Below, in pieces: positions 32,639 to 37,857 of a stretch of DNA of 39,690 bases. How positions within the stretch are numbered: position 1 is the stretch's first letter; every line of letters starts with the position of its first letter. The stretch is from a virus. Its lineage: Duplodnaviria > Heunggongvirae > Uroviricota > Caudoviricetes. Position numbers and translations under genes: made by a program. The notes below the pieces were generated by a model. The model had not been told where the DNA came from. It searched no databases and was given only the letters and a program-made list of their open reading frames with translations. Where the stretch lies: IMG/VR virus record IMGVR_UViG_2734482571_000007; one strand, written 5' to 3'.

Positions 32639-33169
32639 TTATTTATTCAGTCCGGCGTCCTGTTCAAAAGGCTCGACATAAAAACTTTCAGCGCCTTTAT
32701 TCACCTTGATACCGGCAATGCCTTTCACAGCATCCGGCTCCGCCAGGACGGCTTCCTTGTTCACTTCCTCTTTCGTGCGGATGAAACGCTCAAGCCCCAT
32801 ACGGCGCAGCATTTCAATCACACCTTCCACATCACGGCTGACGCTGCATGATGGCGTTCCCAGCCGCCATGACACCGTTCCGGTGGTCAGATTGGCTGTT
32901 TTGGTTTTGCCGCCGTTCGTCAGCTCATCACGGTTGGTTTTGCACCAGTCCTGAATCCCTTTAAAAAGCACTTTGATTTGCTTTTTAAGATTTTCAATCT
33001 GCGGCGTATAACGGGCGGTGATTTCTGCCACTTCGTCATTCATCGCCGTTTCCAGGCGCAGCGCCTCTCGCTGAATATCTCCCAGGGTGCGGATATCACG
33101 GCTGACTTCTTCCCGGGTCTGCGGTGCCGCCTCGGCTGCGGCCTTTAATTTTGTAACGCGTTTAGCCAT
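32639..33169 (-). CDS. gam: Gam-like host-nuclease inhibitor (Mu Gam family)
   Basis: 176 aa; motifs LGDIQREALRLETAMNDEVAEIT, WCKTNRDELTNGGKTKTANL and ERFIRTKEEVNKEA match Mu Gam as recalled. Confidence 0.85.
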   Translation of the reverse strand: MAKRVTKLKAAAEAAPQTREEVSRDIRTLGDIQREALRLETAMNDEVAEITARYTPQIENLKKQIKVLFKGIQDWCKTNRDELTNGGKTKTANLTTGTVSWRLGTPSCSVSRDVEGVIEMLRRMGLERFIRTKEEVNKEAVLAEPDAVKGIAGIKVNKGAESFYVEPFEQDAGLNK

Positions 33170-33180
33170 TTTGTTTTTCC

Positions 33181-33474
33181 TTATTGCAGTGTGCCTGATG
33201 CTTTATGCACGCGGTGGCGTTTAATGATGGCATCCGCTCCAAAAGACTGTGCAGATGCCTGAAATTCCGCTGAGAGAAACTGAATAATTGCAGGACTGTG
33301 ATACTGGAGAATACTTGCATAAACGTCACAGAGTGACGTCGGCCTGTTATCCGTATCACGTTCTGTTTTCACATCCACTCCAATCTTTTCATGCACTTCA
33401 ACACAGTCATTGCCTGCCAACTTTTCGTCATGCGAAACATGATTAAATTCAAAAATAACGCGTACTTTGCTCAT
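33181..33474 (-). CDS. Small early protein, tandem paralogue A (starts MSKVRVIFEF)
   Basis: N-terminus parallels the adjacent ORF 33479..33751 (MSKVVRIIFEY). Confidence 0.5.
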   Translation of the reverse strand: MSKVRVIFEFNHVSHDEKLAGNDCVEVHEKIGVDVKTERDTDNRPTSLCDVYASILQYHSPAIIQFLSAEFQASAQSFGADAIIKRHRVHKASGTLQ

Positions 33475-33478
33475 GGAA

Positions 33479-33751
33479 TTACCCCTGTTGATTAAATTCA
33501 TTACCGTTAATAACCCCGGAAGCCATGCCTCTGTCTTTCATGAATGCACTGGCTTTCATTGCCACAAACTCTGCGAAGTTTCTGCTTTCTGCCAGCATAA
33601 CCACCCCAAAAATCATGGCGGGTCCATTATCTTTCTTCTTTATTCCGGTTGAACGTATATCCAGACTTACCCCTCTGTGCGTGCTGCCATCAGAGTTTTT
33701 GCAGATAACATCTTCCTTGTATTCGAAAATAATGCGTACGACTTTACTCAT
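33479..33751 (-). CDS. Small early protein, tandem paralogue B (starts MSKVVRIIFEY)
   Basis: See paralogue A. Confidence 0.5.
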   Translation of the reverse strand: MSKVVRIIFEYKEDVICKNSDGSTHRGVSLDIRSTGIKKKDNGPAMIFGVVMLAESRNFAEFVAMKASAFMKDRGMASGVINGNEFNQQG

Positions 33752-34030: not shown

Positions 34031-34297
34031 TCACACCTCCCAGTAAACCGTGCAGCCGCTGATGCGGGTGGCCTTCACACGGCGGCGCAGGCCGTTGGTC
34101 TGTATGGTGATTTCAATTTCACCGGTTCCCTGCACGTTGCCTACCGGCGGCGTGGTTTTCAGTGCAAAACGTTGCGGATAGCGCTTACTGCGTTCCAGTA
34201 CCGCACCGGCAAGTTCGGTCAGACGGCGCGCGCTGTTCAGGGAGTCGAATAAATTCATTTTGTTACCGCAGGATTGCATATTCATATAACACCTCAT
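34031..34297 (-). CDS. Hypothetical early protein (88 aa or shorter)
   Basis: ORF in the early operon. Confidence 0.4.
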   Translation of the reverse strand: MRCYMNMQSCGNKMNLFDSLNSARRLTELAGAVLERSKRYPQRFALKTTPPVGNVQGTGEIEITIQTNGLRRRVKATRISGCTVYWEV

Positions 34298-34525
34298 TTA
34301 GCTGACTTGTTTCGCACCAACAGAACGGCATATTCCGCTGTAAACTTCTGTCGCACCTTCGCGATCAAGTCCGGCAGATATCACCATTCGTGTGCGGTCA
34401 TTAAATTCAAAAAGTAAATCGCCACATTCTTTATTTTCGGCCAGTGAAATCACCTTCACGTTATCGAAATTAACCAGGTAAAAGCGTCCGTAAATATCAG
34501 GAATATTAAATACCGCCATAATCAC
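34298..34525 (-). CDS. Small early protein at the Kil position (75 aa, directly after B)
   Basis: Position and size match Mu kil; no sequence recognition. Confidence 0.4.
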   Translation of the reverse strand: MIMAVFNIPDIYGRFYLVNFDNVKVISLAENKECGDLLFEFNDRTRMVISAGLDREGATEVYSGICRSVGAKQVS

Positions 34526-35463
34526 ACCTGTGAGAGTAATTCAGGGTTGGTATAAACCTCTTTAAAGGCCGCATTAATATGTTTTTCTGTCAGCGCCGCG
34601 CCTTCACCGCTGGCGGTGAGCCACGCCTGGTTAAGCGTATGTGTCAGAACGCGTAACGCTCCCGGCTTTTCAGCGATAGCCTGCATGACGGCCAGCTCGG
34701 CCTCACCACTGATCCCCCACGCCATGGCAATGGCCAGCACATCCGCCTTTTTGGCCTTGCGAAGTTGTTTTGTACGGGCAAGACGGCTGAACAGGCGCGA
34801 TAAATCATCAAAGGCGCGGCGTCCACCTTTAAACAATCCGCGCGGGTTACCAATAAGCACCATCCCGATCCCCGTGGCGTCCTGAATTGCCCGGAGTTGC
34901 TCCAGACCGTCAATACCAAGATGATCCGCCTCATCCACAATCACCAGTCCACGCGTTCCCATCAGGCGACGGCGGATGGCGCGGGATAATGCCCCTTTGT
35001 TCGCGCGGGTGTAATCAATCCCCAGCGCATCGGCCAGCTCCAGCAGACACTCCGTGACGCTGGAGTGCGCGGGTGACAGGGTGATCATCCAGGTGTTTGG
35101 TTGCTCCTGGCAGTAATTACGGGCAGTGGCCGTTTTACCCACACCCGGTACGCCCACAATAACGTTAATACAGCCCATCAGGCGAACCGCCTGAAACAGT
35201 GCGCGCAGCTCCTGGACTGTCTGAGTTTCCACAAACTGCGGCGGTTCCGGCAGTGCGCTTTGTTTATTCCAGTTCTCATACCAGGAGCGCAGGGAAGCAG
35301 CCACAGCAGCGTTATCGCCTTTATATTTTCCCTTACGGAAAGCCGATAATGTGCCGTCGGAAATTCCCGCCTCTCTGGCGATGGCATACTGCGTCAGTAC
35401 GCCGCCATCAATAAGTTCATCAATGGTCTTGATTACATCGTTAATATCGGTCATATTATTCAC
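34522..35463 (-). CDS. B: MuB-like ATP-dependent target-DNA activator
   Basis: 313 aa; Walker A GVPGVGKT; directly after the transposase. Confidence 0.85.
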   Translation of the reverse strand: MNNMTDINDVIKTIDELIDGGVLTQYAIAREAGISDGTLSAFRKGKYKGDNAAVAASLRSWYENWNKQSALPEPPQFVETQTVQELRALFQAVRLMGCINVIVGVPGVGKTATARNYCQEQPNTWMITLSPAHSSVTECLLELADALGIDYTRANKGALSRAIRRRLMGTRGLVIVDEADHLGIDGLEQLRAIQDATGIGMVLIGNPRGLFKGGRRAFDDLSRLFSRLARTKQLRKAKKADVLAIAMAWGISGEAELAVMQAIAEKPGALRVLTHTLNQAWLTASGEGAALTEKHINAAFKEVYTNPELLSQV

Positions 35464-35536: not shown

Positions 35537-37624
35537 TCAGGCCAGCGGATCACTTTCTTTTAATTTCGCTTCGAGCAGTTGCAATCCCCGCTGGAAATTA
35601 CGCTCGTATTCTTCATCAGGTTCATCGTCAGCGACCGGTTGCTGAACGGTCACCGTATTACCCACAGGGCGGTATATGTTTTCCAGCCAGGGCTCCTGCG
35701 GCTTGTGCTCCAGCACGTTGACAACCTCATCCTCGGCATCACGGATTTTTTCCTCTGCGCGTTTACGCATGCCTTTAAGGCGCTGCTGCTGTTTGTAGTA
35801 TTCCGCGCTGACAGGGAAGGCTTCGCGTTTATTGCCGTCCCATACCGCCTCGCAAATCACGCTGCCATCCGGGCGGCGCACGGTAATTCGTTCGGCATCA
35901 TGAATGTCATAGCTGATAAGTACCTTACGGCCATGCTCGTCACGCAGCTCGGGCGCGTAGTAAATATTATTCAGCCAGCGTATTTCACAGCGTCTTACAG
36001 GGCGCTCCACCATCGGCCGGAACATATCCCGCAGTTCAACATCGGACAGCCATTCAATTTCCGTGTCCTCTTCCGCCAGGCGTTTTTTTCTGAACTCCGC
36101 CGGGCTGTAATGTTTACCGTTCGGCTTCATGGGTAATTCATCGTGCGGCCGGTTGTTGTACCACTCAACACCGTCACGAATGGCATCAATCAGTTCAGAC
36201 CAGGACGGTAAATCACGCATCGCTGACTGCTGCCGGGCGTTCAGCCGTTTGCCCTGTTGCAGGGCACTGAATGCCGAGCGTAAATCGCGGTTGGTTTTAC
36301 GTAACGTCTCGCGATCTGCTCCTTTCCCGAAATAGGTGCGGTATTTACGGGCTATGCGCATCGGTAATGTGCGGTTAAGCCGTTCGATAATGCCCCGTCC
36401 CTGCGGATTACCGGCAATCCCTGTCGGGTGATTAATCCCCAGTCGTGGCAGTATCCCCACAATCTCCTTATCCAGGACGTCGGCGGTTTCCCCGGAGCCA
36501 TTATCCGAGTAATACAGAAACGGTTTGCCATGATGGCGAATACCGTGCTGTATGGCACCGGCTACGGCGAAAACATTTTCAGCCAGGTCAAGGCTCCAGC
36601 CCACCACAAAGCGCGTGCCACCGTCGATAACAAAGGTCACTTCCGGTGCGAATGGCCGCCCGTGAACCGGGTGCGCGCATTTCAGCTTCATGCCGTGACC
36701 GTCACCAATCCAGACATAATTCACCGGCATTCTGGACCAGTCGCGGCGCGTGAATCCCTCAAGCTGACGGTATTCACTGCCAGTTACCCGGCCTTTTTGT
36801 TTCACCACTTCCGGCAGTTTCTTCATTGCGCGGCGAATGGTGTCATAAGAGGGCATGATATCGAGCATATAAGGCTCATCAGCGTGCCGGTGCTGCCATT
36901 CAGCAACAAAATCCTCGTAAGCCTCGGTCATTGGTCGGCCGTTTGACTGGCGATACTGCGCCAGAAATTCGGGCAGCCAGTTAATATCTTCGGCTTTTAT
37001 TTCCTGGCGTTTACCCGGTGCCAGTAAAAGCAGGCGTTCAGCGGCGTTCTGTGCCTTGTTAAAGGCCGCAATCCAGCGTTTCAGCGTGATTTCACTCAAC
37101 GCGCGGCTGTTTCCCTTTTTGGCGTTCGCCGTCTCAACCATTGCCACAATGCGCTCGTCCAGTTGTGATCGTGCCAGGCTGTTAACGAGGAACCGGATAG
37201 CTTTAGCGCAGCTGAAACCGGGTTGTTGCGTGAATTTCAGCACCTCACTGACGATCGCAATGCGTGCGTCTGCCACCTGGCGCTGGTTTTCAGTCAGGGC
37301 ATTGAGGCGTTCGACCATCAGTTGTGGTGATCCGCGATATGCCTCCACCGCATCAACCACGGCAGACGAGCGTCTGGCCTTTGTCACCACCGGAGCCGGT
37401 GATTCATCGGCTTTTTGCGTCATCAGTTGCAGGGCATAACGTTCGCGTAATGCCTGCTGTGTCACTTCAGGTAAACAGTCAATGCTGTATTCAAAACCTT
37501 TAGCGCCTTTCTTGCGGCGTCTGCTGGTTTCGCTGGTTGCATACTTCCTGATTGAATAGCGAACGCCTTGCTCCGTTCCCGGCATCCCCGGTAATCCAAC
37601 CAGTTCTTTAACTGAAGCAAACAT
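35537..37624 (-). CDS. A: MuA-like DDE transposase
   Basis: 695 aa; N-terminus (LPGMP...GVRYSIRK) parallels MuA; position between ner and B. Confidence 0.9.
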   Translation of the reverse strand: MFASVKELVGLPGMPGTEQGVRYSIRKYATSETSRRRKKGAKGFEYSIDCLPEVTQQALRERYALQLMTQKADESPAPVVTKARRSSAVVDAVEAYRGSPQLMVERLNALTENQRQVADARIAIVSEVLKFTQQPGFSCAKAIRFLVNSLARSQLDERIVAMVETANAKKGNSRALSEITLKRWIAAFNKAQNAAERLLLLAPGKRQEIKAEDINWLPEFLAQYRQSNGRPMTEAYEDFVAEWQHRHADEPYMLDIMPSYDTIRRAMKKLPEVVKQKGRVTGSEYRQLEGFTRRDWSRMPVNYVWIGDGHGMKLKCAHPVHGRPFAPEVTFVIDGGTRFVVGWSLDLAENVFAVAGAIQHGIRHHGKPFLYYSDNGSGETADVLDKEIVGILPRLGINHPTGIAGNPQGRGIIERLNRTLPMRIARKYRTYFGKGADRETLRKTNRDLRSAFSALQQGKRLNARQQSAMRDLPSWSELIDAIRDGVEWYNNRPHDELPMKPNGKHYSPAEFRKKRLAEEDTEIEWLSDVELRDMFRPMVERPVRRCEIRWLNNIYYAPELRDEHGRKVLISYDIHDAERITVRRPDGSVICEAVWDGNKREAFPVSAEYYKQQQRLKGMRKRAEEKIRDAEDEVVNVLEHKPQEPWLENIYRPVGNTVTVQQPVADDEPDEEYERNFQRGLQLLEAKLKESDPLA

Positions 37625-37626
37625 AA

Positions 37627-37857
37627 TTACGCGACCTTACGAATGTAGCGGCTGGGCCAAATCTCCTCGGGCGGCACCCCCAGGCATTCCGCGATAATCC
37701 CCTCATACTTGGGAACATGGCGGTATACCGCGTTGTACAGATTGTTCTGACCCACGCCAGCTTTACGGGCCAGCGCCCTCATGCTTCCTTCTCTGGCTCT
37801 GACTTCCCCCAAAATTCTTTGAGGATGCCAATCAGGCTTAACTTCATTTCTCGCCAT
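37627..37857 (-). CDS. ner: Ner-like DNA-binding regulator
   Basis: 76 aa; DWHPQRI and IWPSRY motifs of the Ner/Nlp family; first gene of the early operon. Confidence 0.85.
   Translation of the reverse strand: MARNEVKPDWHPQRILGEVRAREGSMRALARKAGVGQNNLYNAVYRHVPKYEGIIAECLGVPPEEIWPSRYIRKVA

Follow-up and report, generated by a model that had tools for sequence, protein, structure and literature searches.

A tandem pair of hypervariable early genes in a Mu-like Escherichia coli prophage and its probable distant kinship with Mu gp7 (Gnarl2)

Results

P1 and P2 are coupled early genes

The stretch of DNA analysed here (IMG/VR record IMGVR_UViG_2734482571_000007, 39,690 nucleotides (nt), called the window below) is a Mu-like Escherichia coli prophage, in which homologues of MuB, Kil, Gam, gp11 and gp12 are arranged in the Mu order. 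Two adjacent genes of its early (Pe) operon, P1 and P2, are the subject of this study. An earlier note, made from the letters of the window alone, had described two neighbouring genes for proteins of about 90 amino acids (aa) that both start with MSKV(V)R(V/I)IFE(F/Y) and then diverge, and two open reading frames (ORFs) were indeed found on the minus strand at exactly the positions it gave. P1 (33479-33751) encodes 90 aa and starts with MSKVVRIIFEYKED; P2 (33181-33474) encodes 97 aa and starts with MSKVRVIFEFNHV. All other features of the window described below are on the minus strand as well. Sequence comparison supports P1 and P2 as very diverged full-length members of one family, which also appears to hold Mu gp7 (E6), the protein described elsewhere as Gnarl2.

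P1 and P2 are real, translationally coupled early-operon genes. The stop codon of a 93-aa gene upstream and the start codon of P1 overlap in an ATGA (33748-33751, read from the sequence), an arrangement of translational coupling, and the P2 ATG follows the P1 stop after only 4 nt. The P2 start was taken as the ATG at 33474, which has an AGGGG Shine-Dalgarno (SD) sequence about 7 nt upstream (33482-33486, inside the last P1 codons; read from the sequence and conserved in the allele DNA alignment), whereas the start of a longer ORF at 33501 has none. Both coding sequences have identical ends in the RefSeq/PGAP annotation of a 100%-identical genome, NZ_AP022815, where the products WP_000049428.1 (P1) and WP_000049310.1 (P2) are each called 'hypothetical protein'.

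In the PHROGs collection, P1 belonged to phrog_4107 (E = 1.7e-54) and P2 to phrog_2230 (E = 1.8e-38), both of unknown function. Close relatives of each, sought by word-indexed searches over 5.8 billion proteins, were all unnamed proteins, and nearly all named sources were E. coli. Neither protein had a match in Pfam, NCBIfam or PADLOC, nor one at E < 0.1 among the sequences of the Protein Data Bank (PDB).

The shared N-terminal motif

The motif of P1 is MSKVVRIIFEY (codons 1-11, 33719-33751) and that of P2 is MSKVRVIFEF (codons 1-10, 33445-33474). Over 11 positions, 9 are identical and 2 conservative, with one 1-residue gap. This was the top-scoring N-terminal match among 15,931 pairs of window ORFs of at least 60 aa (score 36; 99.9th percentile 26), and in a six-frame translation of the window the pattern K[IV]..[IVL][IVL][FI]E[FYIL] occurred only at the P1 and P2 sites. 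The motif was also kept in 158 of the 158 unique members of the family that we collected, and therefore the likeness of the two N-termini is not due to chance. The family consensus, M-[AS]-K-V-(x)-[IV]-I-[FI]-E-[FYIL], is almost invariant. In the alignments of the P1 and P2 families, the motif forms the invariant columns of the former and marks the left edge of the variable cassette in both.

Within the motif codons, synonymous differences were found (GTC/GTA/GTT, ATT/ATC, TTC/TTT and GAA/GAG); hence it is the peptide that is conserved and not a nucleic-acid element. An RNA or DNA element at the conserved 5' end was also considered and found no support: in addition to these differences, an Rfam search of the locus gave no match, and no promoter-like or terminator-like site was seen on the coding strand between 32500 and 34700.

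P2 and the Mu gp7 slot

To place the two proteins, 103 loci around gam homologues were fetched and the ORFs upstream of gam were read. Mu, D108-like and other enterobacterial Mu-type phages carry one gene of 85-89 aa between kil/gp6 and gp8/gam, and its product always starts with MAKVI[IF]E[IFL]. The same early-operon slot was seen in Mu and in loci L002, L004, L068, L090 and L093. P2 matched the 89-aa slot alleles of Mu-type phages in BLASTP with E = 2e-10 and 35% identity over 83 aa. A profile search with the slot sequences returned 90 clusters, all of hypothetical proteins, from Escherichia, Salmonella, Yersinia, Cronobacter, Kluyvera, Citrobacter and Shigella. The family as collected comprises 158 unique full-length sequences of 85-97 aa in seven deep classes, defined by single linkage at 50% identity, and was found only in Mu-like phages of Enterobacterales. 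In Mu-like prophages outside this order (Pasteurellaceae, Orbaceae, Pseudomonas; L003-L024), no motif-bearing ORF was present upstream of gam.

In profile comparison with hhalign, P2 aligned with the F class of slot sequences at 97% probability (E = 1e-10), and still at 95% (E = 6e-8) when the N-terminus was removed. Mu gp7 aligned with the F class over all 87 columns at 93.6% probability (E = 2e-7), and with F plus P2 at 94.3%; by itself it weakly matched phrog_2230, the group of P2 (E = 0.009). By these comparisons P2 is clearly a member of the Mu gp7/E6-slot family, with the link to gp7 being transitive through the 89-aa alleles. The members of the family have an almost invariant first strand and, probably, a second strand, a 'GP' turn and then a helical region of conserved length.

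P1 is probably a paralogue of P2

P1 is divergent and orphan-like. In full-length BLASTP, P1 and P2 were 22% identical over 76 aa (E = 6e-4). When the first 11-12 residues were removed, the two profiles aligned with E = 0.25-0.35 in hhalign. The P1 body against the smaller profile of the P2 superfamily gave E = 0.1, and the observed score was reached by 29 of 200 permutations. An exhaustive HMMER search of the P1 profile against 1.84e9 representatives returned only the family of P1 itself and some long-repeat proteins (leucine-rich repeats, immunoglobulin-like repeats and a 2963-aa repeat protein), which were discarded as artefacts.

A larger family profile was built from the F class, P2 and Mu gp7 (114 unique sequences). 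P1 aligned with it at 92.3% probability (E = 5e-7) over 75 collinear columns. The P1 body alone matched it with E = 0.0014 and a score of 20.5, while a column-permutation null, perhaps a somewhat liberal one, gave 9.98 ± 1.99 with a maximum of 16.4, so that 0 of 149 permutations reached the observed score. In this alignment, which was in register, the second strand (GVSLDIRS against ig.sV), the GP turn and the Gly at the close of the helical region were each paired, with equal spacing throughout. Family-averaged hydropathy of P1 and P2 also correlated best at the expected register (r = 0.37, top of 51 shifts), comparable to the r = 0.34 of a control with the known homologues P2 and the F class. 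Since the P1 body matches the family profile in register, tandem paralogy of P1 and P2 is supported.

The earlier note had read the pair as tandem diversified duplicates, and had named a lack of significant pairwise similarity beyond the first 10 residues as the point against this reading. Strictly pairwise, the lack was very nearly what we found, with nothing significant past the motif; it was the larger family profile that overturned this result. The possibility that P1 is a frameshifted copy of P2 was rejected, as the family hidden Markov model (HMM) matched the annotated frames only and blastn recovered only the 5' motif and a 12-mer; no out-of-frame homology of P1 to P2 was found.

That 12-mer is a direct repeat, TGAATTTAATCA, with one copy in the C-terminal codons of P1 (33489-33500; N-E-F-N-Q) and the other in P2 codons 8-11 (33440-33451; F-E-F-N-H), both in the same frame. 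It occurs exactly twice in the whole window (expected 0.00). Recombination between the two copies would give an in-frame P1-P2 fusion. In L105, which has the most divergent P1 homologue, P1 terminates exactly at ...DEFN* and both repeat copies have GAG instead of GAA. The repeat may be a scar of the origin of the tandem pair, or evidence of gene conversion.

The two junctions flanking P2 were also compared with Mu. The window P2-stop/gam-start junction, CAATAAGGAAAAACAAAATGGCTAAA (33151-33176), is identical at 23 of 26 positions to the gp6-stop/gp7-start junction of Mu (L001, 4767-4792), and the 16-mer AAACAAAATGGCWAAA is found once in the window and once in Mu. The P1/P2 junction (TTAATTAACAGGAGC in L105, 4256-4270) matches the gp9/gam junction of Mu (5775-5789). 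The junctions look swapped relative to Mu, which could reflect either shared strong translation-initiation regions or recombination scars at starts encoding M-A/S-K.

Structure prediction

The earlier note had suggested homology searches and structure prediction as checks. The former placed both proteins in the Mu gp7 family, as described above; the latter gave poor models, since AlphaFold2 on shallow early alignments reached a predicted local distance difference test (pLDDT) of 48 for P1 and 57 for P2. A Foldseek search of the low-confidence P2 model against BFVD returned nothing at E <= 0.001, and neither protein was given a fold. The idea that the proteins mimic DNA was rejected, as their net charges (manual count) are about +3 for P1 and -2 for P2, with no strongly acidic signature.

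The gene bodies are exchanged as cassettes

In Mu, L090 and L093, the kil, gp6, gp8, gp9 and gam products are 94-100% identical, and the slot proteins are of different classes, less than 40% identical or not alignable in pairs. DNA identity among the three runs through ...ACAAAATGGCAAAAGTAATYWTTGA, is lost after about codon 9 and is back exactly at the gp8 ribosome-binding site (RBS). Two relatives of the window have the same pattern at the tandem pair. In L105, P1 is 57% identical to that of the window and P2 93% identical; DNA identity in P1 persists to about codon 12 and then falls. In L044, P2 is 58% identical and P1 about 85% identical; DNA identity in P2 persists to about codon 10 and returns at the P2 stop and the gam RBS. 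In both relatives the breaks come directly after the conserved 5' codons and end at the start region of the next gene, and in both gene positions the flanks of the swapped bodies are about 99% identical. Otherwise near-identical phages have swapped the gene body as a cassette, and have done so at P1 and at P2 independently.

The ratio of nonsynonymous to synonymous diversity (pN/pS) was 0.36 for P1 and 0.40 for P2, compared with 0.07 for both gam and B, and 0.13 for the 93-aa gene; pS at P1 and P2 was up to 0.15. P1 and P2 are under net purifying selection that is weaker than at their neighbours, with pN/pS below 1 and 5-fold above that of gam or B.

Of 40 related loci, 38 have the tandem pair, and the most divergent locus has it too. 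One locus, L035 (IMG/VR UViG_2654587996_000001, 3554-4200), has Kil, directly after it a P2-type gene (60% identical to P2 of the window) and then gam, without P1 or the 93-aa gene. Either its single copy is ancestral, or a deletion took place between the repeated 5' ends. Damaged natural variants were many among the database relatives (P0030, P0052, P0061, P0063, P0029, P0034 and P0039). In P0030, residues 1-49 of P1 are fused to residues 80-97 of P2, the DNA between two 'FG' codon pairs having been deleted. Several P2 variants have shifted into one and the same alternative frame, and truncation was seen in several P1 variants. These variants point to frequent decay of P1- and P2-type genes in resident prophages.

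Genomic context

Between B and gam, the minus strand carries orf75, kil, orf93, P1 and P2, in this sequence, and homologues of Mu gp11 and gp12 come after gam. Upstream of B, the early operon further includes ner (37627-37857) and transposase A (35537-37624), both from the ORF list. The MuB-type AAA+ transposition protein (34522-35463) was recognised by Pfam Phage-MuB_C and AAA_22. The ORF directly after MuB (34298-34525, 75 aa) matches phrog_3375 of unknown function; the Kil homologue is not this ORF but the one that follows it (34031-34297, 88 aa; phrog_2679, E = 8e-46; BLASTP to Mu Kil, E = 1e-4). Gam, the host-nuclease inhibitor (32639-33169; Pfam Phage_Mu_Gam, E = 5.5e-42), lies directly downstream of P2 and is 57% identical to Mu Gam. 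The order from B to gam is unlike that of Mu, as homologues of gp6, gp8 and gp9 are absent there.

The 93-aa gene upstream of P1 (33748-34029) matched phrog_1518, annotated 'host nuclease inhibitor' (E = 4e-43), and had no match in Pfam or NCBIfam. About 7 of the 40 related loci lack it. L002, a further enterobacterial prophage, has a homologue with 49% identity between the gp7-type gene and gam. This gene is a second variable accessory gene of the kil-gam block.

The locus was found in 232 of 5426 complete E. coli genomes, 226 of them with at least 80% of the 701-nt query, and the carriers include many O157:H7, O26 and O103 strains. In the phage collection, the only matches were LC727881.1 and LC727895.1, both records of Shiga toxin (Stx)-converting phages. 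In these records the Mu-like element bears the annotation 'region of the inserted Bacteriophage Mu-like phage', so here an Stx prophage was the insertion target of a transposable phage.

Discussion

P1 and P2 as possible Gnarl2-like envelope modifiers

Mu E6 (Mup07) is orf63, or gnarl2, in the accessory-gene screen of Silas et al. (Nat Commun 2025, PMC12373910; preprint 10.1101/2023.04.06.535777). Gnarl2 is NP_050611.1 (NC_000929, 4784..5047), the same coding sequence as the Mu gp7 used in our comparisons. In ECOR1 and ECOR22, but not in ECOR3, gnarl2 alone caused a downshift of the O-antigen ladder and increased T5 infection 10^5-10^6-fold, and transposon disruption of O-antigen genes phenocopied gnarl2 expression (PMC12373910). 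Silas et al. viewed the Gnarl proteins as too small for enzymes and proposed that they act on host O-antigen enzymes (PMC12373910). Our literature search found no follow-up paper on Gnarl2.

Gnarl2 and the two proteins studied here occupy the same kil-gam early-operon slot in the same phage type, are of similar size (87 aa against 90 and 97), start with MAKVIIEI and MSKV(V)R(V/I)IFE(F/Y), respectively, and fall in the same superfamily by profile comparison. Gnarl2 had also been picked independently as a hypervariable accessory gene (preprint 10.1101/2023.04.06.535777). It differs from them in sequence, with about 21% identity to P2 and no pairwise-detectable similarity to P1, and in number, with one copy in Mu and two tandem copies in the window prophage. 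Furthermore, the O-antigen phenotype is known from the Mu allele only, and in some hosts.

From this distant homology, we give an even chance to the reading that P1 and P2 are Gnarl2-like modifiers of the host envelope (O-antigen) with different specificities, and no better than even, given how distant the homology is and that the target could have changed. Like Gnarl2, they would be non-enzymatic cytoplasmic binders, made early in lytic growth, and would disturb a step by which the infected or induced cell makes or modifies its O-antigen or lipopolysaccharide (LPS). The conserved N-terminal hairpin could act as a structural scaffold, possibly as a dimer interface, and the variable loops and helices would set which host variant is recognised. 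Two diverged copies might then widen the range of host O-antigen types or targets. Since Gnarl2 is host-specific and the O-antigen gene clusters of E. coli are hugely diverse, the diversity of the slot would have a natural reason. The earlier note had suggested host takeover or anti-defence for the pair. In the broad sense this agrees with Gnarl2, which came from a counter-defence screen; in the narrow sense it does not, as Gnarl2 acts on the O-antigen surface barrier and not on an intracellular defence.

Several observations weigh against the assignment to the gp7 family and the function proposed from it. P2 is only about 21% identical to Mu gp7, and direct hhalign comparison of the P2 family with the gp7 family was not significant (E = 0.03-0.09). 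When its N-terminus was trimmed, gp7 was only marginally similar to F plus P2, with 4 of 149 permutations reaching the score. The link of P1 and P2 to Mu gp7 is distant and transitive, and the column-permutation null behind the 0 of 149 for the P1 body ignores local compositional structure, which is why it may be somewhat liberal. Because the AlphaFold models were poor, the strand-strand-helix-helix architecture is weakly supported. The fast-diverging bodies may have changed target, and the O-antigen phenotype may not transfer to them. The many frameshifted, truncated or fused variants show that numerous lysogens can dispense with the genes. For Gnarl2 itself, affinity purification-mass spectrometry (AP-MS) gave no clear pattern, and the LPS gel was n = 1 (PMC12373910).

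Comparison with other small phage proteins

Gnarl1 and Gnarl3 are also stand-alone phage proteins of 40-90 aa that shift O-antigen bands and open the cell to T5 (PMC12373910). They act without a phage glycosyltransferase and provide a model for a small binder that alters LPS; Gnarl3 binds GalU (PMC12373910). They differ in being proteins of lytic phages with a different or unknown target, and no sequence relationship to P1 or P2 is claimed or was found. That a small phage peptide can block a step of O-antigen assembly has a precedent in Iap of Pseudomonas phage D3, which inhibits the O-antigen polymerase of the host (cited in PMC12373910), but Iap acts alongside two phage seroconversion enzymes, is expressed in the lysogen and has no sequence relationship to P1 or P2.

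The Aqs1/Tip proteins of the Pseudomonas transposable phages DMS3 and D3112 are small proteins that bind envelope machinery (PilB) and regulators, and they too combine a conserved core with unrelated variable modules (PMC11656802). They are not homologous to P1 and P2, form a helical bundle, belong to another host and target the type IV pilus motor and LasR.

Alternative explanations

P1 and P2 might instead inhibit strain-specific intracellular immunity, such as nucleases or abortive infection, in which case their hypervariability would reflect an arms race there and not in envelope biosynthesis. The hypervariable early-operon slot does stand beside Gam and a gene of the 'host nuclease inhibitor' PHROG, the pN/pS is raised and the bodies are swapped as cassettes. 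In addition, gnarl2 is conditionally lethal in some hosts, as is typical of proteins sensed by abortive infection systems (preprint 10.1101/2023.04.06.535777). However, the effect of Gnarl2 was uncorrelated with the defence repertoires of the hosts and was phenocopied by O-antigen or capsule transposon mutants (PMC12373910), and neither P1 nor P2 matched PADLOC, Pfam, NCBIfam or a solved structure. We consider this explanation unlikely.

A role within the early programme of the phage itself (transposition or replication, MuB, Gam, Kil or early expression), with the variability being neutral drift, appears improbable. It would agree with the translational coupling of the genes within the B-kil-gam block, with the retention of the pair in 38 of 40 related loci, and with an N-terminus as invariant as expected for contact with a conserved partner. 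Against it, slot alleles less than 40% identical between flanking genes that are 94-100% identical, as in the Mu relatives, are hard to square with a conserved partner of the whole protein; one locus is without P1, and frameshifted variants are common. Gnarl2 also has its host phenotype without any other phage gene (PMC12373910).

We regard it as similarly doubtful that P1 is a chimera, in which an unrelated or de novo body became attached to a duplicate of a gp7-type 5' end and the N-terminus is a leader, tag or recombination linker. Such an origin would explain why pairwise and small-profile similarity is lost on N-terminal trimming and why P1 is an orphan among 1.84e9 proteins; the allele DNA identity does break directly after the motif, and P1, at its 3' end, shares the in-frame 12-nt repeat with P2 codons 8-11. 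What argues for a common full-length ancestry of P1 and P2 is that the larger profile finds the P1 body in register (0 of 149 permutations), that the hydropathy register agrees, and that the GP turn and the terminal Gly are equally spaced. The synonymous differences in the motif point to selection on the peptide and not on the DNA, and P1 has no out-of-frame homology to P2.

A further possibility is suggested by analogy with phage T4, whose capsid-targeting leader ends in I-x-E, as does the motif of P1 and P2. The nearly invariant N-terminal peptide (7-10 residues ending in I-[FI]-E) might be more than the first strand of a fold, namely a leader that a single conserved partner recognises, for example a protease, a chaperone or the capsid. 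The slot would then be a plug-in site, where recombination at the leader exchanges one effector payload for another, and the window prophage would have two payloads. The Met-Ala/Ser start of this peptide should lose its Met. The T4 internal proteins IPI, IPII and IPIII are likewise diverse small proteins from polymorphic loci that share only an N-terminus of about 10 residues (PMC3012670). In T4, however, the N-terminus is the cleaved packaging signal of virion proteins that are injected with the DNA, while P1 and P2 are early-operon genes, no promoter was seen on their coding strand, and their N-terminus is predicted to be a core beta-strand. The T4-like leader pattern is present in the family, but the bodies are weakly homologous and the N-terminus was modelled as a strand of a hairpin, and we regard a leader of this kind as very improbable.

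Finally, it is hardly credible that P1, P2 or both are non-functional remnants or artefacts of annotation, even with the many truncated, frameshifted or fused database variants and no annotation of the family anywhere, given pN/pS of 0.36-0.40 with pS up to 0.15, reading frames intact in 226 of 232 carrier genomes, a proper SD sequence and start coupling, and a motif kept in 158 unique sequences of seven deep classes.

Significance

The prophage type studied here is common in pathogenic, Shiga-toxigenic E. coli, where both genes are annotated as hypothetical only. The probable tie to Gnarl2 gives P1 and P2 a testable function, that of small phage proteins altering the O-antigen, on which serotyping is based and which forms the chief surface barrier against other phages. 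P1 and P2 are two members added to an already known kind of system and not a new kind. To the published knowledge of Gnarl2, our analysis adds that it belongs to a family whose N-terminal strand is invariant and which has seven or more deep classes, that gene bodies move as cassettes, with defined boundaries, among otherwise identical phages, and that one lineage retains two diverged copies. The natural alleles offer a ready-made specificity panel for finding the host target of Gnarl2.

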